Of a DNA stretch of 64,000 nt, positions 21,777 to 53,895 are shown in pieces. The position numbers were made by a program, and so were the translations under genes. This DNA is from Corallococcus coralloides. Its GTDB lineage: Bacteria; Myxococcota; Myxococcia; Myxococcales; Myxococcaceae. Numbering within the stretch: position 1 is the stretch's first letter; each line of letters opens with the position of its first letter. The DNA is taken from NCBI RefSeq assembly GCF_044792175.1, contig NZ_CP172866.1; one strand, written 5' to 3'. The notes under the pieces are model-generated. The model was not told the origin of the DNA, made no database searches, and worked only from the letters and a program-made list of their open reading frames with translations.

Positions 21777-24926
<3,150 letters not shown>

Positions 24927-24964
24927 TCAGGTACCCAGGAAAGAAGAGGGGAGGGCAGGGACCG

Positions 24965-26065
24965 CTACTGCGCGACGCGCACGGCGGTCCCCTCCTTGAC
25001 GTCCAGCGAGGCGTCGGCGAGCACGCGCTCCTCCGCCGTCAGGCCCTGCAGCACCTTCACGTAGCCCGGCAGCACGCGCTGCACGCGCACGTCGCGCTTG
25101 CGCACGGTGCCGTCCTGCACCACCCACACGAAGCCGTCCTGGCCCTTGCTGCTGACGGCCTGCGCCGGCAGGAACAGGCCGTTGCCCGCGTCACCCGCGG
25201 CCTTGGAGAAGTCCATCTCCACCAGCGCGCCGGGGCGCAGCGGGTGGTCCGTCTTGCCCGTCACGTCCGCCAGCACCTCCACGGTGCGGCTCTGCGCGTC
25301 GATGACGGCGCCCACGTTGGCCACCTTCGCCTCGAAGCGCATGCCGCTGGGGTTCACGGTGCCCGGCGTCACCGTGCCCGGCGTCACGTTGTCGATGACG
25401 GACTCCGGCACCATCATCCGGATCTCCAGCCCGTCCGTGTCCACGATGGAGAACACCGGCGTGGAGGGCGTCATCGCCACGGAGTCACCCACGTTCTTGT
25501 TGCGCGCGGTGATGATGCCGTTGAAGGGCGCCACGATGTTGTGGTCGCGCAGGTTCTCCAGCGCCAGCCGGTAGGCCGCGCCCGCCTGGGCCGCCTGGGC
25601 CGCGGCCTGCTTCTGGCCAATCTCCACCTGCTCCAGCGCGTTGGCCGCGACACCGCCGGACTCGGCGACCTTGCGGGTGCGCTCCAGGTTGCTGGTGGCC
25701 AACTGCAGCGCGGCCTCCGCCATGTCCTTGGCCGCCTTCGCCTGGTCCACCGCGATGGCCACGTTGGACGTGTCCAACTGCGCCAGCACGTCGCCCTTCT
25801 TCACCTTGTCGCCCACCCGGACGTTCACCTTCGCGAGCGTGCCCGTCGCCTGGGGACCCAGGACGGCCTCCTGCTTGGAGCGGACCTGCCCCGTCACGCG
25901 CGTCACGTTCTGCTCCAGCTCCGTGGCCGGGGTGATGGCCTTGACGCCCAGCGCGTTGGAGCCTTCCTGCTGCGCCGGAAGCTGCGCCTTCTCCGCGCCC
26001 GCCTTCGAGCACCCCGCCGTCGACACCGCCACGGCCACCACGGCAGCCAAGATTCGCTGATTCAC
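24965..26065 (-). CDS. RND efflux membrane-fusion protein (HlyD family), lipoprotein
   Basis: Lipobox STAGC. Coiled-coil and beta-barrel MFP pattern. Contains a tandem TPGTVTPGTV. Confidence 0.85.
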   Translation of the reverse strand: MNQRILAAVVAVAVSTAGCSKAGAEKAQLPAQQEGSNALGVKAITPATELEQNVTRVTGQVRSKQEAVLGPQATGTLAKVNVRVGDKVKKGDVLAQLDTSNVAIAVDQAKAAKDMAEAALQLATSNLERTRKVAESGGVAANALEQVEIGQKQAAAQAAQAGAAYRLALENLRDHNIVAPFNGIITARNKNVGDSVAMTPSTPVFSIVDTDGLEIRMMVPESVIDNVTPGTVTPGTVNPSGMRFEAKVANVGAVIDAQSRTVEVLADVTGKTDHPLRPGALVEMDFSKAAGDAGNGLFLPAQAVSSKGQDGFVWVVQDGTVRKRDVRVQRVLPGYVKVLQGLTAEERVLADASLDVKEGTAVRVAQ

Positions 26066-35172: not shown

Positions 35173-36339
35173 CTACTCCGCGCAGGTGGCGGCTTCGTCG
35201 GTGGGGTGCAGCGTGGCGATGCCGTAGGTGCCGTTGCGCGTGCCGCACCAGATGCGCCAGTTGCCGCCGCCCACGTCCGGCGCCGAGTACACGCCGCCCT
35301 CCTTCTTCGCCCCGCCGCGCGCACAGCAGCGCGCGAACGCCCGGGTCCCGATGGCGGCGATGGAGACCGCGTCCTGCGACGTGGAGAAGCCGCCCGTGCG
35401 CTTCACGCCGCAGGACCACGGGGACAGCCCCTTGAAGCGGATGAGGTACTGCTCGCCGCGCACGGCGTCCTCGCCCCGGGCCGGGCCCTGGTAGCAGACC
35501 TTGCCTTCCGCCTCGAGCTGCGCGTAGCGGGGCAGGAAGTGCAGGCCGCCAATCGGGCCGCGCTGCCAGTCATCCCCGCAGAAGACATGCGTGAACGCGT
35601 TGCGCGGGCCGGTGCTCACCCACAGGCTCGTGAGCCATTCGATGTTCGCCTGCCGCGAGCCGGGACGCCCCGCCGCGGACAGCGCGCGCTGCACCCGCGC
35701 GTCGTCGTAGTGCTTCGCGAAGAAGCGCTGCACGTCCCCGGCGCTCACGCTCGCGTCGGGGCGCGCGGGGCACAGGTCCAGCACCTCGCGGTCCAGCGCG
35801 GACAGCGCCGGGGCCTTGGCGAAGAGGGGCGGTTGATCACACGTGCTCGCGCAGGCCGCCATGTCGCCCGGAGCCGCGGCGCGACTCGCCGGTGCGCGCA
35901 CCGCCACGGTGACCTCTTCCGTGTCGTCCGGCTCCGCAGGGGGCGCACCCGCACCGGCTCCGCTCCCGATGGGCTTCGCCTCCGCGAGGGCCCCGCCGCC
36001 GCCGCGCGACACCTGCTGCTGGCGCGTGTTCGCATGGTCCGCGCGCACGAGCGCGTCCGTGTCCGGCGCCTTCTGGACGGCCTCCGTGGGCGTGCCATCG
36101 CAGAGCACCCAGCCCTCGGCCCCGGGCCCCTGGAGCTTGCACCACGCGCGGTCGGGGCCGCCCTTCTTCACGAGCGGATAGGACACGCCCGGCTGCACGG
36201 AGAAGACGACCTTGGAGGACTGGGGCTGGTCCACCGCGTCCACGGCCTCTTCGGTGACGAAGACGCCGCTCCCCGCGAAGGCGACGGGGGCGGTGGAGAG
36301 GGCCAGGAAGAAGCAGGCGAGCGACCCGGAGAGGCGCAT
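35173..36339 (-). CDS. secreted protein with N-terminal SH3b-like region and C-terminal EndoU-like (XendoU/PP11 family) ribonuclease domain
   Basis: Signal peptide MRLSGSLACFFLALSTAPVAFAG. The C-terminal NAFTHVFCGDDWQRGPIGGLHFLPRY aligns with the EndoU signature GFEHVFxGE...G(F)HNWxxF. Downstream Lys-containing segments are present. Confidence 0.5.
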   Translation of the reverse strand: MRLSGSLACFFLALSTAPVAFAGSGVFVTEEAVDAVDQPQSSKVVFSVQPGVSYPLVKKGGPDRAWCKLQGPGAEGWVLCDGTPTEAVQKAPDTDALVRADHANTRQQQVSRGGGGALAEAKPIGSGAGAGAPPAEPDDTEEVTVAVRAPASRAAAPGDMAACASTCDQPPLFAKAPALSALDREVLDLCPARPDASVSAGDVQRFFAKHYDDARVQRALSAAGRPGSRQANIEWLTSLWVSTGPRNAFTHVFCGDDWQRGPIGGLHFLPRYAQLEAEGKVCYQGPARGEDAVRGEQYLIRFKGLSPWSCGVKRTGGFSTSQDAVSIAAIGTRAFARCCARGGAKKEGGVYSAPDVGGGNWRIWCGTRNGTYGIATLHPTDEAATCAE

Positions 36340-36425
36340 GGTGGGCCGGACTCTAACAGGGGCGCCCCAAGCCCGCTGTTCCCCGGTTGCGCCCGGCGCC
36401 GCGCCGCGAAATAAACGCGCCCGAT

Positions 36426-37250
36426 ATGAAACCGATGAATTTCCGAGGCCGCTGGGTGCTCATTACCGGCGCGTCGTCCGGCCTGGGGCTGGAGATGGCC
36501 CGCCTGCTCGCGAAGGAGCACGGCGCCCACATCATCGCCGTGGCCCGCCGCGAGGACCGGCTCGCCGCGCTGAAGGCGGAGCTGGAGTCCGCGCACGGCG
36601 TGCAGGTGCTGCCCCTCTCCGCGGACCTCACGAAGCCCGGCGACGCCGAGCGCGTCTTCGAGACCGCCACGTCCGGCCGCACCGTCGACGGCGTCATCCT
36701 CAACGCGGGCGTCACCTACTTCGGCCACGCGCTGGAGCAGCAGCCCGAGTCCTTCGACGCGCTGCTCGCCACCAACATCACCAGCGTGGTGCGCATGTCC
36801 CAGCTCTTCGGCGCGCACTTCGCGAAGCGGGGCGGGGGCGGGGCGCTGATGCTCGTCGCCAGCACCGCGGGCTTCGCGCCGCTGCCGTACCAGACGGCCT
36901 ACGCCGCGTCGAAGTCGTTCGTCATCAGCTACGGGCGGGGCCTGGCCTACGAGCTGCGCAAGGCGGGCGTGTCCGTCACCGTTTTCGCGCCCGGCGGCAT
37001 CGCCACGGAGATGCTGTCGGTGTCCGGCCTGGACCGGAAGTTCAAGGCGGGCGACGTGGGCATCATGTCCGCGGAGGCCTGCGCGCGCATTGCCGTGGAG
37101 GCGTTCGTGCACCGCCGCGAGCTCTGCGTGCCCGGCGTCCTCAACCGCTTCCTCGCGGCGATGATGAAGCTGCTGCCCCACGGCTTCATGATGGGGCGCT
37201 CGGCCGCGCTGTACGAAGGCGCGCTGCCGAAGGAGCCGCCCGCGCCCTGA
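36426..37250 (+). CDS. SDR family oxidoreductase
   Basis: Rossmann fold TGASSGLG and catalytic YxxxK (YAASK). Confidence 0.85.
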   Translation: MKPMNFRGRWVLITGASSGLGLEMARLLAKEHGAHIIAVARREDRLAALKAELESAHGVQVLPLSADLTKPGDAERVFETATSGRTVDGVILNAGVTYFGHALEQQPESFDALLATNITSVVRMSQLFGAHFAKRGGGGALMLVASTAGFAPLPYQTAYAASKSFVISYGRGLAYELRKAGVSVTVFAPGGIATEMLSVSGLDRKFKAGDVGIMSAEACARIAVEAFVHRRELCVPGVLNRFLAAMMKLLPHGFMMGRSAALYEGALPKEPPAP

Positions 37251-37281: not shown

Positions 37282-38544
37282 TCAGGACAGCTTCACCCGC
37301 GTGACCTTCAGCTTGCCCACCTGCACGGTGTACTCGCCGGCCCCCAGCTCCGCCTTGGGGTCGGTGACCTTCTCACCGTTCACCTTCACGCCGCCCTGGC
37401 CCATCATCTTTCGCGCCTCGGTGGCGGAGGCGACGAACTTCGTCTCCGGCAGCAGCTTGGTGACGAGCAGCTTCTCCGCGCCGCCAAGCGACACCTCCAC
37501 GAGCGGCAGGTCCTCCGTGGACAGCTCCTTCTTGGCGAAGCGCTTCTCGAAGTCCTCCGCCGCCTTGCGGCCGGCCTCCTCCCCCTGGAAGCGCGCGGCC
37601 ATCTCCTGCGCGAAGGCGACCTTCGCGGCCTTGGGGTGCGCCGCGCCGGACTTCGTCTGCTCCTCCAGCTCCAGCACCTGCTTGAGCGGCATGGCGGAGA
37701 GCAGCTTGTAGTACCGCCACATCAGGTCGTCCGTGATGCTCATCAACTTGCCGAAGATGCTGTCCGCCGGCTCGTCGATGCCCACGTAGTTGTCCAGGCT
37801 CTTGGACATCTTGTTGCCGGTGATGACGCCGTCCACCAGCTTCGCGTCCAGGCCCTCCAGGATGGGGCCGGTCATGATGACCTGCGGCTCCATGCCCTCT
37901 TCCTTCATCAACTGGCGGCCGACGAGCAGGTTGAAGAGCTGATCCGTCGCGCCCAGCTCCACGTCCGCCTTCAGCGCCACGGAGTCGTAGCCCTGCAGGA
38001 GCGGGTAGAGGAACTCGTGGATGGCGATGGAGGTGTTCTCCCGGTAGCGCTTCTTGAAGTCGTCGCGCTCCAGCATGCGCTGCACGGAGTAGCGCGCGGC
38101 CAGGCGGATCATCCCCTCGGTGCCCAGCGCGTCGAGCCACTCCGAGTTGAACTTCACCACCGTCTTGTCCGGGTCCAGGACCTTGAAGACCTGCTGCTTG
38201 TACGTCTCCGAGTTGACCTTCACCTGCTCGCGCGTGAGCGGAGGCCGGGCGGCGTTCTTGCCGGACGGGTCCCCGATGAGCGCGGTGAAGTCACCGATGA
38301 GGAAGACCACCGTGTGGCCGAACTCCTGGAAGCGCCGCATGCGCGTGAGCAGCAGCGTGTGGCCCAGGTGCAGGTCGGGACGGCTGGGGTCGAAGCCCGC
38401 CTTGATGATGAGGGGCTTGCCCTTGTCATACGAGCGCTGGAGCTTCTTCTTCAGGTCCTCCGGCACGTGGAGGTCCACGGTGCCGCGAGTGACTTCTTCG
38501 AACTGCTCTTCGGGGGTTGCCTTGCGCAGTGCGTCCGGGTTCAT
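37282..38544 (-). CDS. tyrS: tyrosine--tRNA ligase
   Basis: HIGH motif (LHLGH), KMSKS motif, and a C-terminal S4 domain. Confidence 0.9.
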
Positions 38545-38562
38545 GGCGCCGCGGACACTAGC

Positions 38563-38612
38563 CCAAAAAAGGCGACGGGCAGGGCGGGACTTCCGTGTCC
38601 GCCCCACCCGTG
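38563..38612 (-). terminator. rho-independent terminator (minus strand) downstream of the MTHFS gene
   Basis: Extended GC hairpin GGGCGGGAC...GTCCGCCCC, followed on the minus strand by TTTTTT (forward AAAAAA at 38565-38570). It sits between the MTHFS stop and the tyrS start. Confidence 0.6.
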
Positions 38613-38660: not shown

Positions 38661-39290
38661 TCAGGTGTCCAGGAAGTCGAAGCTGCGGTAGAGGCCGCGC
38701 AGCGTCTGGCTCTCCGTGACGATCTGGTCCATGTCCACGTCGTCGCTCGTGGTGGGCAGCGCCTGGACGATCTGGTCGTTGAACGCGAGCCCCACGCGGC
38801 GGCTGCGCGGGCTGGCCGCCTTGAGGGTGGCGTCGTAGTAGCCACCGCCGCGCCCCAGCCGCTTGCCGTCCGGGCTGAAGCCCAGTCCGGGCACCACGAA
38901 CAGGTCGATCTGATCCACCGGAATCAGGTCCGAGGAGTTCGTGGGCTCACGGACGCCCAGGCGCCCCGGCTCCAGCTCGCTCTCCGACTTGATGGCCCGG
39001 AAGGCCAGGATGCGCCCGTGCACGTGGGACAGCGGGTAGCAGACGATCTTCTCGTCCTGCAACGCCGCGATGAGGATGTCCCGGGTGGGCACTTCGCCCC
39101 GGATGGGGGCGTAGAGCGCCACCGTCCGCGCCTTGTCGTAATAGGGCGATGCCAGGAATCGAGACTGGACCTTGAGGCCCCGCTCGTCGATGAGGTCGTT
39201 GGTCATCGCCTTGCGGCGCGCCGTCAGTTCCTCACGAAGCGTTACCTTCTTCTCCGCCGCCGCCGCCGTATCCACCGCCGTCTCGCTCAC
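38661..39290 (-). CDS. 5-formyltetrahydrofolate cyclo-ligase (MTHFS, YgfA-like)
   Basis: 209 aa with GLGFSPDGKRLGRGGGYYD. GTG start with GGAG 9 nt upstream. Confidence 0.8.
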   Translation of the reverse strand: MSETAVDTAAAAEKKVTLREELTARRKAMTNDLIDERGLKVQSRFLASPYYDKARTVALYAPIRGEVPTRDILIAALQDEKIVCYPLSHVHGRILAFRAIKSESELEPGRLGVREPTNSSDLIPVDQIDLFVVPGLGFSPDGKRLGRGGGYYDATLKAASPRSRRVGLAFNDQIVQALPTTSDDVDMDQIVTESQTLRGLYRSFDFLDT

Positions 39291-39500: not shown

Positions 39501-39661
39501 CAGACCTTTTACCACTCAAATCGTGCTGCAAGTCCTTAGAATTACTGGGAAAATCCCAGGGCGTTCTGGGAAAATGATAAGGATGGAGAAGCGTGCGGTC
39601 AAGCCGTCCTCGCGCGTTTACAAGCCGCCCCGTGGACTTCTATGATGCCCGGGTCCCCGAC

Positions 39662-40657
39662 ATGTCGCTCCCGACCCCAACATTGGCTCTCGCGGCGGTA
39701 GCCTGCCTCGCCTCCGGATTCGCCTGGGCGGGTCCGCAGCTCAACAGTACCTATCAGGCAGATGCCTTCGGCCCCATCGAGTTGCGCTCGGACGGGGAGC
39801 ACCTGGTCGGCACGGCGCCGGCCGGGGGGCCCTGCCAGCGCCCGGCCGCCGAGCCGATATTGACGGGGGACTTCCAGGGAAACGTCTTCCTGGGGGAGCT
39901 CACGCTCTGTCAGACGGGGGACACCTGCACCCCGTCCCGCAGCTTCCCGGTGATGCTCGTCTACAACGTGGAGGAGCGGGCGCTGGGCGGCGTGGTGAAG
40001 CTGGAGGACGACTGCGAGTCCCCGGCGCTGCCCAAGAACCGGATGCTGGTGCTCCGCGCGACGGAGCAGGGCGCGGCGCTGACGCCGGCGACGGCGCAGG
40101 CCCCCGAGCAGCGCCAGGTGCAGGCGCCCGTGCCTCCTCCGCCGTCCGGTGGGGCCGCGCAGGTGGCGGCGCAGCGCCGGCTGGAGCCCCTGGACGTGGC
40201 GGCCACCCTGAAGCTGGGGCAGTCGCTGCTGCCCAACAACCCCTTCGGGGCGTCGCAGCAGTTCCAGTTGGTGCTGTCCCAGGAGAAGGAGAAGAACAAC
40301 GCCTGGGCGCTGACGGGCATGGGCGTGGCGTACCACCTGCGCAAGCAGCAGCCGGAGGCGCTCAAGTACCTGGATCAGGCGCGCAGCGTGGGCAGCGGCG
40401 CGGCGCGGGCGGAGGCCTTCTTCTGGACCGCGTGCGTGAAGCGGGCCGCGCAGGAGTCCGCGTTCGCCCAGGCCGCGCTGAAGCGGGCGCTGCAGGAAGG
40501 CTGGTCTCCTCCGGAGGGCAACGCGCTGGTGGAGCGCGAGCTCCAGCAGTTCGCCAATGAGGGAACGTTGTACGAGGCGCTGGTGAAGCAGGCCCGCGGT
40601 CGCAAGCAGCGGGTCCAGGGCCGTGATCCACAAGGAGCTGGAAGCTCCAGCCCGTGA
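39662..40657 (+). CDS. secreted protein with C-terminal TPR-like helical region (hypothetical)
   Basis: Signal peptide MSLPTPTLALAAVACLASGFAWAG. The stop overlaps the kinase gene's start. Confidence 0.6.
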   Translation: MSLPTPTLALAAVACLASGFAWAGPQLNSTYQADAFGPIELRSDGEHLVGTAPAGGPCQRPAAEPILTGDFQGNVFLGELTLCQTGDTCTPSRSFPVMLVYNVEERALGGVVKLEDDCESPALPKNRMLVLRATEQGAALTPATAQAPEQRQVQAPVPPPPSGGAAQVAAQRRLEPLDVAATLKLGQSLLPNNPFGASQQFQLVLSQEKEKNNAWALTGMGVAYHLRKQQPEALKYLDQARSVGSGAARAEAFFWTACVKRAAQESAFAQAALKRALQEGWSPPEGNALVERELQQFANEGTLYEALVKQARGRKQRVQGRDPQGAGSSSP

Positions 40658-41646
40658 ACGCGCCGACTCCCGTGTCGAAGCCCATCCGCGTCTTCGGCAA
40701 CTACGAAATCCAATCGCTCCTGGGCAAGGGCGGTATGGCCGAGGTGTACCGCGCGCGCGTGCGCTCCGGTCCCCATGAAGGCTGGACCGTGGCGCTCAAG
40801 CGGCTGTTGCCCGCGCTCACCCGCGACCCGGCGTCGGTGGACCTCTTCCGCCGCGAGGCGCAGTTGTCCCGCCAGTTGGACCACCCGAACATCGTGAAGG
40901 TGCTGGACGCCGGGATGCTGGACGACGTGTCCTTCCTGGTGATGGACCTGGTGGACGGGCGCGACCTGGGCCACATCCTGCGCCGCTGCAAGGCGCGCGG
41001 GATTCCGCTCCCCGTCGACTTCGCGGTGTACCTGGCGAAGGTGCTGCTGGAGGCGCTCGCGTACGCGCACACCGCCACCGGCCCGGACGGCAAGCCGCTG
41101 GGCATCGTCCACTGCGACGTGTCCCCGTCCAACCTGTTCATCTCCCGCGTGGGGGAGATCAAGCTGGGCGACTTCGGCGTGTCGCGCGTGCTGGTGGACG
41201 GCAAGCTCCAGGGCGGCGAGGTGCTGGGCAAGCCGTACTACCTGTCCCCGGAGTCGCTGCAGGGCGCCGTGACGCCGGAGGCGGACCTGTGGGCCGCGAG
41301 CGTGGTGCTCTACGAGCTGCTCACGCTGGGCCGGCCCTTCGTGGGCACGACGCCGGAGGAGGTCTTCGCGGGCATCCTGTCGCGCAAGTACCGGCTCCTG
41401 CGCTCGGTGCGTCCGGACATCCCGCAGGCGCTGGACGACGTGCTGGCGCGCGCGTTCGCGGAGAACCCCGAGGACCGCTTCCCGTCCGCGGAGGAGTACG
41501 CGAAGGCGCTGTCGCCGCACTTCGACGAGCGCGTGGGGACGCCGCTGGCCATCGCGGCGGTGGTGCGCGGCCTGTTCGGCACCACGGACGAGATGCCCGC
41601 GTACCGCAGCTCGCCGTCCAACGGCCCCTCCGACGACAACGGGTAG
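40654..41646 (+). CDS. Hanks-type serine/threonine protein kinase
   Basis: Kinase subdomains GKGGMAEVYRA, HCDVSPSN, DFG and SPE. Confidence 0.85.
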   Translation: MNAPTPVSKPIRVFGNYEIQSLLGKGGMAEVYRARVRSGPHEGWTVALKRLLPALTRDPASVDLFRREAQLSRQLDHPNIVKVLDAGMLDDVSFLVMDLVDGRDLGHILRRCKARGIPLPVDFAVYLAKVLLEALAYAHTATGPDGKPLGIVHCDVSPSNLFISRVGEIKLGDFGVSRVLVDGKLQGGEVLGKPYYLSPESLQGAVTPEADLWAASVVLYELLTLGRPFVGTTPEEVFAGILSRKYRLLRSVRPDIPQALDDVLARAFAENPEDRFPSAEEYAKALSPHFDERVGTPLAIAAVVRGLFGTTDEMPAYRSSPSNGPSDDNG

Positions 41647-49290: not shown

Positions 49291-52200
49291 CTACTTGTCG
49301 AGCTCGTCGACGAGCGCCGTCCAGTCGTCCTCACCGGCTTCGGGGGCGGTGGGCAACTGCATCACCATGGTGCGCTCCGGGGCCTCCTCGTCCACGGGGA
49401 CGGGGGTGGGCGCCGCCTTCTTCGCGGCCGGCTTTGCGGCGGCCTTGGCCGGAGGCTTGGCGGCTGCCGGGATGACCGGGTTGGCCTGGACGGTGGCGGC
49501 CAGGTGCTCGTCCTCGGGGGCCTTGGCGCCGGCCTTCGCGGCGGGGGCGGCGGCCGCGGCGGGGGCCTTGGTCTTGTAGCGGGCCAGCTCCAGCTCGGCG
49601 ACCTTGAGCGCCTTGCTCTTCTCCTGGACGGACGTCTGGAGGCGGGCGACCTCCTGGGCCTTGATGGCCTCGCGGCGCTCGAGCTCCGCCTTCTGCTTGG
49701 CGTTGAGGTCCTCCAGCTCCTTGGCCTGACGGGCCTCCAGGTCCTTGCGCTCCTTCTGCGCCGTGGCGAGCCTGGCGGCCGCCTCGTTGGCCTTGGTCTC
49801 CGCCGCGGCGACGCGGGCGTTGAGGTCCTTCTCCGCGCGGGCGCGGGTGCTCTGGGCGTTCTCCAGCGCCAGCTCCAGGTCCTGGGCCTTCTTGGTGCGG
49901 GCCTGCAACTGGGCCTGGGCGTCCTTGAGCTTCGCCTCCGTGTCGGCGGCGAACTTCTGGGCCTCCTGGGCGAGCTGGGCGATGCGCTGCTCGGCCTTGG
50001 CGAGCTTCGCGGCCAGGTCGTCCGACTGCTTCTTCGCCTCGGCGGCGGCGGCCTGCGCCTGCTGGGCCTGCTGTTGGGCCTGGGCCTGGGCCTGCTGGAG
50101 CTGTCCGGCCAGCCCGTCGCGCTCGCTGGTGAGCTTCTTCTGCTGGTTCGCGGCCTGCTGGAGCTGTCCGTCGCGGTCCGCGATGGCCTTGCGCGCGCCG
50201 TCCAGCTCGCCGGAGACGTTGGAGAGCTGCTGGTGGAGCGCGTCCGCCTGCTTCTTCGCCTCGGCGGCCTGGTGCTCCAACTGGCCTTCCAGTTGCTTCA
50301 CCTGCTCCGTGCGGGTGGAGACCTCGCGGTTGAGCACCTCCGCCTGACGCATCTTCTCCTGCGTCACGTGCGTGAGCTTGCGGAGCGTGTCCGACAGCTC
50401 CTTGCCCTTGGTGTCGACCTCGTTCTGGAGGAGCTCCTCACGGCGCTGCGACTCGTGGGTGAGCGTCTGGAGGCGGTCCTCCAGGTGGTGCCGCGCGTCC
50501 TCCGTCTGCGCGAGCGTGGAGGACAGTTGCGTGACTTCCGACACGCGCGTGCCCAGCTCGTGCTTGGTGACGATGAGCTGCTCGGCCAGGTCCTCGCCGT
50601 TGGCCTGGGCCTCGGTGAGCTGGCGCGTGAGCTCCGCCTGGGCGCTGGCGGCGGCCTCGCGGGACTGCGCGTGGGCCTGCTCCTCGCGGGCGAGCGCGTC
50701 CTGGGTGCTGGCGAGCTGGCCCTGCGTGTCGGCCAACTGCCGCGAGGTGGCGTTCAGCTCCGCGAACAGGTTGTCGCGCTCGCCGGTGAGGGCGTTGATG
50801 CGCGCGGTGGTCTCCTCCGCGAGCGCCGCGTGGGCGGTGCGCTCCGCGTCGTAGAGCCCCTGCGTCTCGGACAGGTCCGCGCGCAACTGGCCAATCTGGC
50901 CGGTGAGGTCCTGCTCCAGCGCGTCCTTCGCCGTGTTGAGCGCCGCCAGCTCCGCGATGCGCGCGTCGCGCTCCTCGGTGGTGCGGGCGAGGAGGCCGTT
51001 GGTCTCCTGGAGGATGTCGCGCGTCTCGTTGAGCTCCGCGTCCAACTCGTCGCGGTGCGAGGTGACCTTCGCCAGGTCGGCGCGCGTCGACTCCAGGGTC
51101 TCCTGGGTCTGCGTCAGCGTCTGGCTGGTGGCCTCCAGCTCGCCGCGCGTCTCCGCGAGCGTGCCCTCGGTGCTGGAGAGCGTCGCCTGCGTCTCGGAGA
51201 GCGTGGCCTCCGTGCGCGCCAGCGTGTCCTGCGTCTGCGCGAGGGTGGATTCGGTGGTGGCCAGCGTCTGGCTGGTGGCCTCCAGCTCGCCCTGGGTGGA
51301 CGCGAGCGTCCCTTCCGTCTGCGCGAGCCTGGCCTGCGTGTCCGTCAGCGTCTGGCTGGTGGCCTCCAGCTCGCCGCGCGTCTCCGCGAGCGTGCCCTCC
51401 GTGCTGGTGAGCGTGGCCTGCGTGTCGGAGAGGCTCTGGCTGGTGGCCTCCAGCTCACCGCGCGTGGTGGAGAGCGTCTCCTCCGTCTGCGCGAGCTTGG
51501 ACTGGGTGTCCGCCAGGGTCTGGCTGGTGGCCTCCAGCTCGCCGCGCGTCTCCGCGAGCGTGCCCTCGGTGCTGGAGAGCGTCGCCTGCGTCTCGGAGAG
51601 CGTGGCCTCCGTGCGCGCCAGCGTGTCCTGCGTCTGGGCGAGCGTGGACTCGGTGGTGGCCAGCGTCTGGCTGGTGGCCTCCAGCTCGCCGCGCGTGGTG
51701 GAGAGCGTCTCCTCCGTCTGCGCCAGGCGCGTCTGCGTCTCGGAGAGCTGCTGGCTGGTGGCCTCCAGCTCGCCGCGCGTCTCGGAGAGGGTGGCCTCCG
51801 TGTTGGAGAGCGTGCCCTGCGTCTCGGAGAGCTGCTGGCTCGTCGCCTCCAGCTCGCCGCGCGTCTCCGCGAGCGTGGCCTCCGTGCCGGAGAGCGTGTT
51901 CTGCGTCTCGGAGAGCTGCTGGCTCGTGGCCTCCAGGTTGCCGGTCAGCTCGGCGATGCGGGCGTCGCGGTCGGAGACGTCGGTCTGCAGGCCCTCGATG
52001 GTGCCGTCGCGCTGGGTGACGGTGTCCTCGAGCGAGGCCACGCGCGCGGAGAGCTGCTCGCCCTGGCGCTGGGACGCGTCGAGCTGCTCGGTGAGCGCTT
52101 GAATCTGGCCGTTGAGGTCCGCCTCCAGGGCGTCCTTCGCCGCGCGCAGGTCCTCCAACTGGCTGGTGAGGTCCTGCTCCAGCGCGTCCTTGGCCTGCTG

Positions 52201-53895
52201 CAGCGCCTGGAGCTCCGCGGTCAGCTCGTTCTCGCGGTCCTCCAGGTGCGTCTTGACGGCCTCGACTTCGCCTTCCAGCTCACCGATGCGCTCGCGGTGC
52301 TGCTGGATGGTGGCGTTGAGCTCCGCCTCGCTGTTCTCGTTGCGGGCGATGGTCTCCTGCAGCTCGCGGTCGAGCGCGGAGATCTTCGCGTCCCGCTCCT
52401 CCAGGCGCTGCGTGAGGTCCGCCTCCAGGGCGTCCTTGTCCAGCCGGAGCTGGTCGCGCTCGCCGGTGACGCGCGCGATGTCGGACTCCAGGTCCGCCAC
52501 CTGCTGCGTGAGGCGCTGCTCCAGGGCGGCGCGCTCGGCGTTGAGGCGCTCAATCTCCGCGTCCGAGCGGCTGGCGTGCTCCTCCGCCGTGGTGGCCCGG
52601 GCCTCCAGGCCGCGCACGGTGGCGTCGCGCTCCTGCTCCGTCTGGGTCAGCCGCTCCTGGAGGGCCTGCAGCTCGCCGTCCAGCTCGGCGTAGCGCTGGT
52701 CGCGCTCGCTGACGGTGCGGGCCAGCTCGGACTCGAACTGATCGCCGCGCTCGCGCAACTGGAGGATGTCCGCCTCGTTGGCGCGGACGGTGTCCTGGAG
52801 CTTCTGCTCCTTGACCTCGAACTCCAGCGTGACGACGCCGAGGTGCTTCTCCAGCTTGTCGAACTCGTTGCGCCAGCTCTCCAGGTCCGCGCCGCGCCGG
52901 GCCAGCTCCTCGTCGCGGAGGTTGACCTCCTTGCGCAGGACGTTGATGTCCTTCTCCTTGGAGGCGACGACCTCGATGAGGTCCTTCTCCGAGGAGAACT
53001 TCTGGAGGAGCAGGTCGTCGACGGTGGCGCCGTGCTCGCGCTCCTTCTGGACGATGGACTGCTGCGCGTCGTTGAAGCGGCGCAGCAGGTCGTCCACCTG
53101 CATCTTCAGGCCCTGCAGCTCCACGTCCTTCTCGTGGAGGCGGTCCTCGACGGAGAGCAGCTCGCGCTCGCGGACGCTCCAGATCTCCGACAGGCGCGCG
53201 AGCTGGGCTTCGCGCGTCTTCAGCTCGTCCCGGAGGATTTGAATCTTGCCCTCGGGCGTGCCCATCAGCTCGCGGCGCGGGGGCGGGCGCTTGAGCTGAC
53301 GCGACTCCGCCAGCAGCTCCGCCTTGCGGTCCGCGATGGACGAGAAGGCCCGGTCCATGAAGGCCTTGTCCTCGTCCGTCATGGCGCTGCGGCGCTCGCG
53401 CTTGGGCAGCTTGGGCGGGGCGCCCGTGCGCACGCCGGGCATGGGCGGCGGGGCTTCACGCGGCTGGCCGGAGAGCGCGGCGTCCAGGTCCGCGTCGGAC
53501 TCGTCGGAGCCGGGCGGCACGATGCCCGCGCTCATGGAGGCCAGCTCGCCCATCTCGAACGGGATGACGAGGTAGCCGTCCGCGGCGGCCGGCGTCTCAC
53601 GGTGTTTGTTCAGACCCTCCACACCGGAGTCGGAGGAGAGCAGGAGGACCTTCAGGTTCTGGCCCCACTTGCCCTTCTTGATCTGCCCACAGAGGGCGAA
53701 GCCGGACTGGTCCGGCAGCTCCGCGCGCACGACGACGAGGTCGGGTCGGCGCTTCTCCAGCTCCCGCTGCGCGTCTGACGCAGTGGTGGCCATGGCCGTG
53801 TTGTAGCCCGCGCTCTTGAGCACGGAGGCCATGCTGAGTGCGAAGTCGTTCTGGCTTTCGACGATGAGGACGCGACGCTCCATGAAGCCCTTCAC
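49291..53895 (-). CDS. response-regulator receiver domain fused to a very long coiled-coil (AglZ/FrzS-like architecture)
   Basis: N-terminal CheY-like receiver (VLIVESQNDFALSMASVLKSAGY...) followed by about 1300 aa of heptad-repeat coiled coil and an Ala/Pro/Lys-rich tail; 1534 aa. Confidence 0.8.
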   Translation of the reverse strand: MKGFMERRVLIVESQNDFALSMASVLKSAGYNTAMATTASDAQRELEKRRPDLVVVRAELPDQSGFALCGQIKKGKWGQNLKVLLLSSDSGVEGLNKHRETPAAADGYLVIPFEMGELASMSAGIVPPGSDESDADLDAALSGQPREAPPPMPGVRTGAPPKLPKRERRSAMTDEDKAFMDRAFSSIADRKAELLAESRQLKRPPPRRELMGTPEGKIQILRDELKTREAQLARLSEIWSVRERELLSVEDRLHEKDVELQGLKMQVDDLLRRFNDAQQSIVQKEREHGATVDDLLLQKFSSEKDLIEVVASKEKDINVLRKEVNLRDEELARRGADLESWRNEFDKLEKHLGVVTLEFEVKEQKLQDTVRANEADILQLRERGDQFESELARTVSERDQRYAELDGELQALQERLTQTEQERDATVRGLEARATTAEEHASRSDAEIERLNAERAALEQRLTQQVADLESDIARVTGERDQLRLDKDALEADLTQRLEERDAKISALDRELQETIARNENSEAELNATIQQHRERIGELEGEVEAVKTHLEDRENELTAELQALQQAKDALEQDLTSQLEDLRAAKDALEADLNGQIQALTEQLDASQRQGEQLSARVASLEDTVTQRDGTIEGLQTDVSDRDARIAELTGNLEATSQQLSETQNTLSGTEATLAETRGELEATSQQLSETQGTLSNTEATLSETRGELEATSQQLSETQTRLAQTEETLSTTRGELEATSQTLATTESTLAQTQDTLARTEATLSETQATLSSTEGTLAETRGELEATSQTLADTQSKLAQTEETLSTTRGELEATSQSLSDTQATLTSTEGTLAETRGELEATSQTLTDTQARLAQTEGTLASTQGELEATSQTLATTESTLAQTQDTLARTEATLSETQATLSSTEGTLAETRGELEATSQTLTQTQETLESTRADLAKVTSHRDELDAELNETRDILQETNGLLARTTEERDARIAELAALNTAKDALEQDLTGQIGQLRADLSETQGLYDAERTAHAALAEETTARINALTGERDNLFAELNATSRQLADTQGQLASTQDALAREEQAHAQSREAAASAQAELTRQLTEAQANGEDLAEQLIVTKHELGTRVSEVTQLSSTLAQTEDARHHLEDRLQTLTHESQRREELLQNEVDTKGKELSDTLRKLTHVTQEKMRQAEVLNREVSTRTEQVKQLEGQLEHQAAEAKKQADALHQQLSNVSGELDGARKAIADRDGQLQQAANQQKKLTSERDGLAGQLQQAQAQAQQQAQQAQAAAAEAKKQSDDLAAKLAKAEQRIAQLAQEAQKFAADTEAKLKDAQAQLQARTKKAQDLELALENAQSTRARAEKDLNARVAAAETKANEAAARLATAQKERKDLEARQAKELEDLNAKQKAELERREAIKAQEVARLQTSVQEKSKALKVAELELARYKTKAPAAAAAPAAKAGAKAPEDEHLAATVQANPVIPAAAKPPAKAAAKPAAKKAAPTPVPVDEEAPERTMVMQLPTAPEAGEDDWTALVDELDK
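51090..51945 (-). repeat. intragenic tandem repeats (84-bp / 28-aa units RGELEATSQxLxxTQxxLxxTExTLxxT) with a 180-bp exact segment duplicated about 400 bp apart
   Basis: About ten 28-aa units. A 60-aa segment (RGELEATSQTLATTESTLAQTQDTLARTEATLSETQATLSSTEGTLAETRGELEATSQTL) occurs twice verbatim at nt 51513-51693 and 51114-51294. Confidence 0.8.

Follow-up and report, generated by a model that had tools for sequence, protein, structure and literature searches.

The bacterial EndoU nucleases that have been studied experimentally are all short-form toxins with immunity partners, among them CdiA-CT of STECO31 (5hkq), CdiA-CT of GN05224, MafB and BC_0920, which belong to the PF14436 profile. Each of these toxins is the C-terminal tip of a large delivery protein, as in the CDI, T7SS and Maf systems, and is encoded next to its immunity gene (PMC9990079, PMC3113570). 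The long form, with its extended helical N-terminal region, has been regarded as an invention of eukaryotes that goes with control by calcium, and Malard et al. (2025) describe this extension as a eukaryote-specific calcium sensor (PMC11961692). In human EndoU (hEndoU) the essential side-chain calcium ligands are E217 and E284 at site 1 and D179 and D315 at site 3 (PMC11961692). Signal peptides and disulfide-rich modules are common in the EndoU proteins of animals, some of which are secreted (PMC11961692, PMC7904951). The nidovirus NendoU (coronavirus Nsp15, arterivirus Nsp11) has a short extension and different N-terminal domains, resides in replicase polyproteins, assembles into hexamers or dimers and is cytoplasmic (PMC11961692). 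Sec-secreted bacterial EndoUs were predicted by Zhang, Iyer and Aravind in 2011, who found some bacterial versions to be closer to the eukaryotic ones, laid emphasis on Wolbachia and other intracellular symbionts and pathogens, and suggested a role in manipulating the host (PMC3113570). A two-term search of the text of that paper met 'Myxococcus' only in the list of species abbreviations, and our literature searches found no study linking EndoU with myxobacteria.

We analysed a stretch of 64,000 nucleotides from Corallococcus coralloides (contig NZ_CP172866.1; hereafter the window), which has a G+C content of about 70% and carries a gene, here called endoU, whose product has, after a signal peptide with an AxA site, a small SH3-like beta domain that a disordered linker connects to an EndoU domain of 228 residues (Table 1). 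A total of 162 homologs of this product were found. The EndoU domain annotation already exists on orthologs in NCBI, among them an 'EndoU domain-containing protein' of Corallococcus exiguus with 94% identity. A tblastn search returned no endoU paralogs within the window, and in scans for promoters, terminators and RNA folds near the gene nothing exceeded the expectation from shuffled sequences (fold z-score -0.5).

Table 1. Coordinates of endoU, of the parts of its product and of other features in the window
Feature	Position	Strand	Basis or remark
endoU, whole gene, 388 codons plus stop	35173..36339	-	ORF listing
Signal peptide, residues 1-22 (MRLSGSLACFFLALSTAPVAFA/GSG), type I AxA cleavage site, without lipobox	36274..36339	-	heuristic
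SH3-like beta domain, residues 25-80, conserved C67/C80	36100..36267	-	
Variable linker, residues 81-160, mostly predicted disordered	35860..36099	-	pLDDT, homolog alignment
EndoU N-terminal helical extension, residues 161-245 (C163, C167, PPLF, C190, D195, H210, W235, W240)	35605..35859	-	
EndoU catalytic core, residues 246-388	35176..35604	-	PF14436 match to residues 246-338; fold match to hEndoU, XendoU, Nsp15, CdiA-CT
His-hairpin motif NAFTHVFCGDDWQRGPIGGLHFLPRY with H251 (35587-35589), D256 and H267 (35539-35541)	35524..35601	-	translation
K313 codon, third member of the catalytic triad	35401..35403	-	aligns with XendoU K224
T376-L377-H378 (ATLHP), equivalent of XendoU T278/Y280	35206..35214	-	hmmalign mapping
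Span from C167 (35839-35841) to C282 (35494-35496), predicted disulfide pair	35494..35841	-	Cys covariation
Alpha-2-macroglobulin (A2M) gene, 2021 aa	29059..35124	+	convergent with endoU, 48 bp gap
SDR gene	36387..37250	+	divergent from endoU
tyrS	37282..38607	-	
5-Formyltetrahydrofolate (FTHF) cyclo-ligase gene	38661..39290	-	
Gene for a predicted secreted protein, 354 aa, no Pfam match	39593..40657	+	4-bp overlap with the start of the next gene
Ser/Thr protein kinase (STK) gene	40654..41646	+	
Gene for a protein of 1534 aa with an N-terminal response-regulator receiver domain, then a very long coiled coil	49291..53895	-	weak Crescentin-rod match
RND efflux pump gene (AcrB family, 1049 aa), adjoining a membrane-fusion (HlyD-type) gene, upstream of an acyl-CoA dehydrogenase gene	21777..26065	-	ordinary context

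The initial annotation had assigned the C-terminal region to EndoU from the motif formed by residues 247-272 of the translation, and both the profile searches and the predicted fold bear this assignment out. The match to PF14436 (EndoU_bacteria) has an E-value of 5.9e-07 and, at 30.4 bits, exceeds the curated cutoff of 25.3. The Pfam model that had been named was, however, PF09412, which has no match to the Corallococcus protein at E<=10 and appears only on some orthologs, with precomputed matches on P0110, P0111, P0112 (listed as weak) and P0114. When the Corallococcus protein and 63 distant relatives were scanned together, PF14436 was found in 61 of the 64 sequences and PF09412 in 19, and no NCBIfam model matches the protein. 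Against PDB sequences, phmmer with the protein alone gave nothing meaningful and a myxobacteria-only profile reached a sub-threshold match to Nsp15 (E 1.4), a significant match on this side needing a broader profile or hhalign. The broad profile, made of the Corallococcus protein and 63 distant homologs taken from a representative search of 1.8 billion proteins, matches hEndoU with an E-value of 3.4e-18 and XendoU with 2.8e-15, and hhalign paired the myxobacterial family profile with XendoU-type proteins at 98.7% probability (E 2.8e-16) over 210 columns, covering residues 161-381.

An AlphaFold2 model, for which 33 aligned homologs served as input (A1; mean pLDDT 78.8), gave the same answer. 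Its scores were 17.9 against human EndoU (9ftw, 195 residues aligned), 16.0 against XendoU (2c1w, 193), 12.2 against MERS Nsp15 (5yvd, 153) and 8.8 against a CdiA-CT EndoU toxin (5hkq, 117), while Foldseek ranked XendoU first (E 4e-06, 227 columns). By profile, catalytic triad and fold, the C-terminal domain belongs to the EndoU superfamily (Pfam clan CL0695), although its sequence identity to the eukaryotic enzymes (human ENDOU 9ftw, Xenopus XendoU 2c1w, PF09412) is only 17-21%. Within this domain the model places four helices in residues 181-240, followed by a beta-rich core up to residue 388 with pLDDT of 85-97. The linker has block-mean pLDDT values of 32-69, falling below 50 in residues 82-92 and 114-157, with a single predicted helix (residues 94-113), and its length ranges among homologs from about 10 to more than 100 residues. 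Residues 25-80 fold with high confidence (pLDDT 92-96) into six beta strands forming an SH3-like barrel. The SH3b-like N-terminal segment proposed earlier is thus there as a fold, but not as a profile match, since neither SH3_3 nor a related Pfam model was detected, PF14436 being the sole Pfam family at E<=10; some orthologs are named 'SH3 domain-containing protein' in UniRef. Eukaryotic EndoU carries somatomedin B as its N-terminal module, in contrast to the SH3-like domain found here.

The signal peptide that the initial annotation had placed before the EndoU domain was recovered in a heuristic scan of 33 homologs, which have a basic n-region followed by a hydrophobic core (maximum Kyte-Doolittle 10-residue mean of 2.2-3.3) and Ala at position -3 in 27/33 and at -1 in 30/33. 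This conserved n-h-c pattern with its AxA site heuristically predicts a secretory protein handled by Sec and SPase I. A lipoprotein was considered and rejected because there is no conserved lipobox; Cys9 in 'SLAC' lies too near the N-terminus for this role and lacks conservation across the aligned family. Beyond the signal peptide, the protein has 12 Cys conserved in 117-121 of 121 homologs, with 10 invariant Cys in the C-terminal domain and 2 in the SH3-like domain, and such a number of conserved Cys fits an oxidising compartment.

Conservation of the active site was counted in the same 121 homologs, and its residues were mapped onto XendoU and hEndoU with hmmalign. H251 corresponds to XendoU H162 and hEndoU H285, D256 to E167 and E290, and H267 to H178 and H300, respectively. 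At K313, T376 and H378, all with XendoU equivalents (Table 1), hEndoU is unaligned; its triad lysine has been published as K343. The His-His-Lys spacings of 16 and 46 residues are the same as in XendoU. H267 and K313 are invariant (121/121), D256 is present in 119/121, position 376 carries Thr or Ser in all 121, and position 378 either Tyr (89 homologs) or His (32). The first His, H251, is retained in 114/121 homologs and replaced by Tyr in 5 (Stigmatella clade) and by Arg and Gln in one homolog each; both motif His are invariant in the distant set of 64 sequences. The two catalytic His recognised in the initial annotation therefore do align with the His pair of XendoU, hEndoU and Nsp15, and their conservation in orthologs, set beforehand as a test, held, but with the exception of the first His in 7/121. 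In these H251-substituted homologs, of which P0082, P0084, P0085, P0087 and P0089 are the Tyr-bearing Stigmatella-clade orthologs, H267, K313 and all Cys are invariant. They may be inactive or mechanistically altered variants, and their existence would fit poorly with a purely catalytic role for the family.

In contrast to the short-form bacterial toxins, the Corallococcus protein has a long N-terminal extension, as seen in the reach of the hhalign alignment, in the four helices and in the 195 residues superposed on 9ftw compared with 117 on the short toxin. The acidic calcium ligands that hEndoU uses at sites 1 and 3 appear, from the alignments, mostly not to be kept. E284 corresponds to T250 (Thr in 121/121) and D315 to C282 (Cys in 121/121), D179 falls in an alignment gap beside C167, and E217 maps to D195 with hhalign or to A196 with hmmalign. 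Calcium regulation of the hEndoU type was therefore rejected as the default, because the residues equivalent to E284 and D315 are not acidic.

Where eukaryotic EndoU has calcium ligands, the Corallococcus protein has instead a co-varying Cys pair at the site-3 junction, formed by C282 and C167, the latter also Cys in 121/121. A looser scan of 47 distant homologs found Cys at both positions in 17 and at neither in 29, with one single-Cys exception in which the motif was probably mis-anchored (Fisher p 6.6e-12, without correction for phylogeny), and a tighter motif scan of 46 distant homologs gave both Cys in 17, neither in 29 and never one alone. These counts were anchored on the motif (the Cys just before PFFD/PPLF), the PFFD region being misaligned in the MAFFT alignment (A2). 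On a rough neighbour-joining tree of the 46 homologs the pair was gained or lost in a coupled manner at least 4 times, with no single-Cys intermediate. From this covariation and the position of C282 in the D315 column we infer a C167-C282 disulfide, which would hold extension and core together at the point where hEndoU has its calcium site 3.

To place the gene in its genomic context, we scanned one genome per species, which yielded 71 loci. All come from Myxococcota, save unclassified 'Proteobacteria' or 'delta proteobacterium' labels and one Comamonas label, and endoU is single-copy in all genomes but one metagenome-assembled genome (MAG). The order STK, secreted protein, FTHF ligase, tyrS, endoU, A2M is kept in Corallococcus, Myxococcus, Pyxidicoccus and Hyalangium and largely in Archangium, where the flank of several loci contains no A2M gene. 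An SDR gene between tyrS and endoU is confined to Corallococcus loci; in most genera outside Corallococcus, tyrS lies directly upstream on the same strand, at about 150 bp. Identity of the EndoU protein declines gradually from 90% to 50% across Myxococcaceae and Archangiaceae, following the genus groupings. In deeper myxobacterial clades the neighbours are unrelated (for example Lhr helicase and MGS, or Wzy_C and AstB) and the tyrS linkage is missing. Full-length relatives with 22-26% identity that likewise have a signal peptide, a small N-domain and a long EndoU occur in Hyphomicrobiaceae/Filomicrobium and Insolitispirillum, where they sit among housekeeping genes such as proS-lolC/E-lolD-endoU-dnaE. 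Compared with the secreted EndoUs highlighted by Zhang et al. (2011), the Corallococcus family is distinguished by its free-living hosts, Myxococcota and Proteobacteria, and by its SH3-like domain.

Some observations made along these loci stand on their own. The locus labelled 'Comamonas sp. KCTC 72670' (L051, BNCN01000003.1) shows the full myxococcal synteny, with identities of 65% for EndoU, 85% for TyrRS and 86% for FTHF ligase, and looks like a mislabelled or contaminated Myxococcus genome. The MAG MFD04428.bin.1.147 is the only scanned genome with two EndoU-family loci (L068 and L070), on two contigs, which may reflect a duplication or a mixed bin. The gene pair for the 354-aa secreted protein and the kinase stays adjacent across genera, the secreted protein evolving rapidly and having only 27-35% identity outside Corallococcus. 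The A2M protein contains MG2, bait-region, A2M and bMG10 domains and a CTEQ thioester motif, and its gene adjoins endoU in most Myxococcaceae and some Archangiaceae loci, so that two 'eukaryote-like' exported proteins are encoded as neighbours. Functional coupling of the two is not favoured, because the genes are transcribed towards each other and are no longer neighbours in deeper clades or in several Archangium loci. Farther along the window, the ORF for the receiver and coiled-coil protein overlaps a strong AT skew (-0.46) at 50-52 kb, and we take its product to resemble the Myxococcus motility proteins AglZ and FrzS.

The absence of toxin-system features extends well beyond the window. The gaps flanking endoU are 48 bp and about 47-86 bp, too short to leave room for an adjacent immunity gene, and no polymorphic-toxin delivery domain is present, as only the signal peptide, the 56-residue SH3-like domain and the linker precede the nuclease. 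Neither a delivery domain nor a conserved small downstream ORF was seen in any of the loci examined, that is, the window and about 70 related loci, which agrees with the earlier description of a stand-alone protein and extends it to the family. The sole immunity-like candidate observed was a 189-aa ORF without Pfam match in a deep-clade locus (L073, 5675..6244, + strand), which lies 117 bp downstream of the EndoU gene on the same strand and is not conserved among the other loci. Whereas polymorphic toxin systems (CDI, Rhs, Maf, LXG) come as polymorphic cassettes, the Corallococcus gene is syntenic and has no delivery domain, immunity gene or strain polymorphism, and it is not a member of that class. 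Given its single copy, its synteny and the lack of a delivery domain and of a conserved small ORF, endoU behaves like a vertically inherited core gene, a conserved gene of housekeeping style and not a toxin cassette.

Taken together, the domain layout and fold, the conserved active site, the covariation of the Cys pair, the synteny and the lack of toxin-system features point to a Sec-exported, disulfide-rich, long-form (XendoU-type) EndoU endoribonuclease that would act outside the cytoplasm, a reading to which we give a probability of roughly 0.6. According to this proposal, the precursor would be exported through Sec, cut after A22 and folded oxidatively, giving a mature protein in which the SH3-like domain is joined by the flexible linker to a 228-residue nuclease composed of the four-helix extension and the beta-sheet core. 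Catalysis would be of the acid-base type known from RNase A: H251 and H267 would form the His pair, K313 would stabilise the transition state, T376 and His/Tyr378 would line the pocket, and the products, probably cut at uridines, would have 2',3'-cyclic phosphate ends. The substrate could be RNA in the periplasm or in the medium, for instance RNA leaked from lysed cells, which the enzyme would turn over or scavenge; candidate roles are thus the scavenging of RNA from lysed prey or kin, RNA turnover in the envelope, or something else. The SH3-like domain probably tethers the enzyme to a cell-envelope polymer, and C167-C282 would pin the helical extension onto the core where human EndoU uses a calcium ion. 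The producer would be protected by compartment and by a folding process requiring up to six disulfides: no immunity protein would be needed, because the precursor would be exported unfolded and these disulfides could not form in the reducing cytoplasm.

Another reading is a secreted antibacterial or predatory toxin, leaving the cell by T2SS, in vesicles or by lysis, entering prey and destroying its RNA, with its immunity encoded elsewhere in the genome or unneeded. We regard this as unlikely. The predatory idea is not specifically supported, because apparently non-predatory Alphaproteobacteria (Hyphomicrobiaceae, Insolitispirillum) share the architecture and keep the gene among housekeeping genes; neither of these groups is known for predation. 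A location inside the cell, in a cytoplasmic RNA-processing enzyme tied to tyrS whose hydrophobic N-terminus is not a cleaved signal peptide, would agree with the position of tyrS about 150 bp upstream on the same strand in most genera, as well as with the processing of snoRNA inside the cell by eukaryotic XendoU (PMC3113570) and with the tRNase activity of CdiA-CT STECO31 (PMC9990079). It is opposed, however, by the conserved n-h-c/AxA signal peptide, by twelve invariant Cys typical of oxidising compartments, by the divergent SDR gene that splits tyrS from endoU in Corallococcus and by the lack of tyrS linkage in deeper clades, and it seems to us highly improbable.

The substitutions of H251 raise a further possibility, namely that the protein is mainly a non-catalytic envelope protein that binds RNA or another ligand, a pseudo-enzyme or nearly so that retains the EndoU fold. 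Tyr, Arg or Gln replaces this His in 7/121 otherwise well-conserved homologs, the hEndoU H285A mutant is inactive (PMC11961692), and the hEndoU calcium ligands E284 and D315 have become Thr and Cys. Against this stand the intact triad, T376 and D256 (the E290 equivalent) in the Corallococcus protein and in 114/121 homologs, and the invariance of both His in the 64 distant relatives. Loss of the calcium site need not mean inactivity either, because the bacterial EndoU toxins work without metals (PMC11961692). We therefore judge a pseudo-enzyme to be quite improbable for the Corallococcus protein, and return to the exported endoribonuclease as the preferred reading.

The family that combines an SH3-like domain with a long-form EndoU appears to be undescribed, as do its extension and the two Cys at the junction of the calcium site. 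A conserved, exported, immunity-free long-form EndoU in Myxococcota and Proteobacteria means that the extension regarded as eukaryotic exists in bacteria, and that a disulfide may stand in for calcium site 3 is a concrete structural hypothesis. More tentatively, and with odds that we place somewhat below even, the family could be the bacterial counterpart, possibly near the ancestor, of the full eukaryotic XendoU domain, with the disulfide staple C167-C282 at the place where eukaryotes evolved their calcium switch (D179/D315). If this is true, eukaryotic calcium regulation would have arisen by the replacement of a covalent staple of exported bacterial enzymes, and these enzymes would constitute an unrecognised bacterial class of housekeeping, immunity-free exported EndoU RNases. 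The family would offer a bacterial system in which to study how producers of EndoU remain safe from it and where the eukaryotic enzymes originate, and for the myxobacteria themselves it may point to an unstudied extracytoplasmic RNase.
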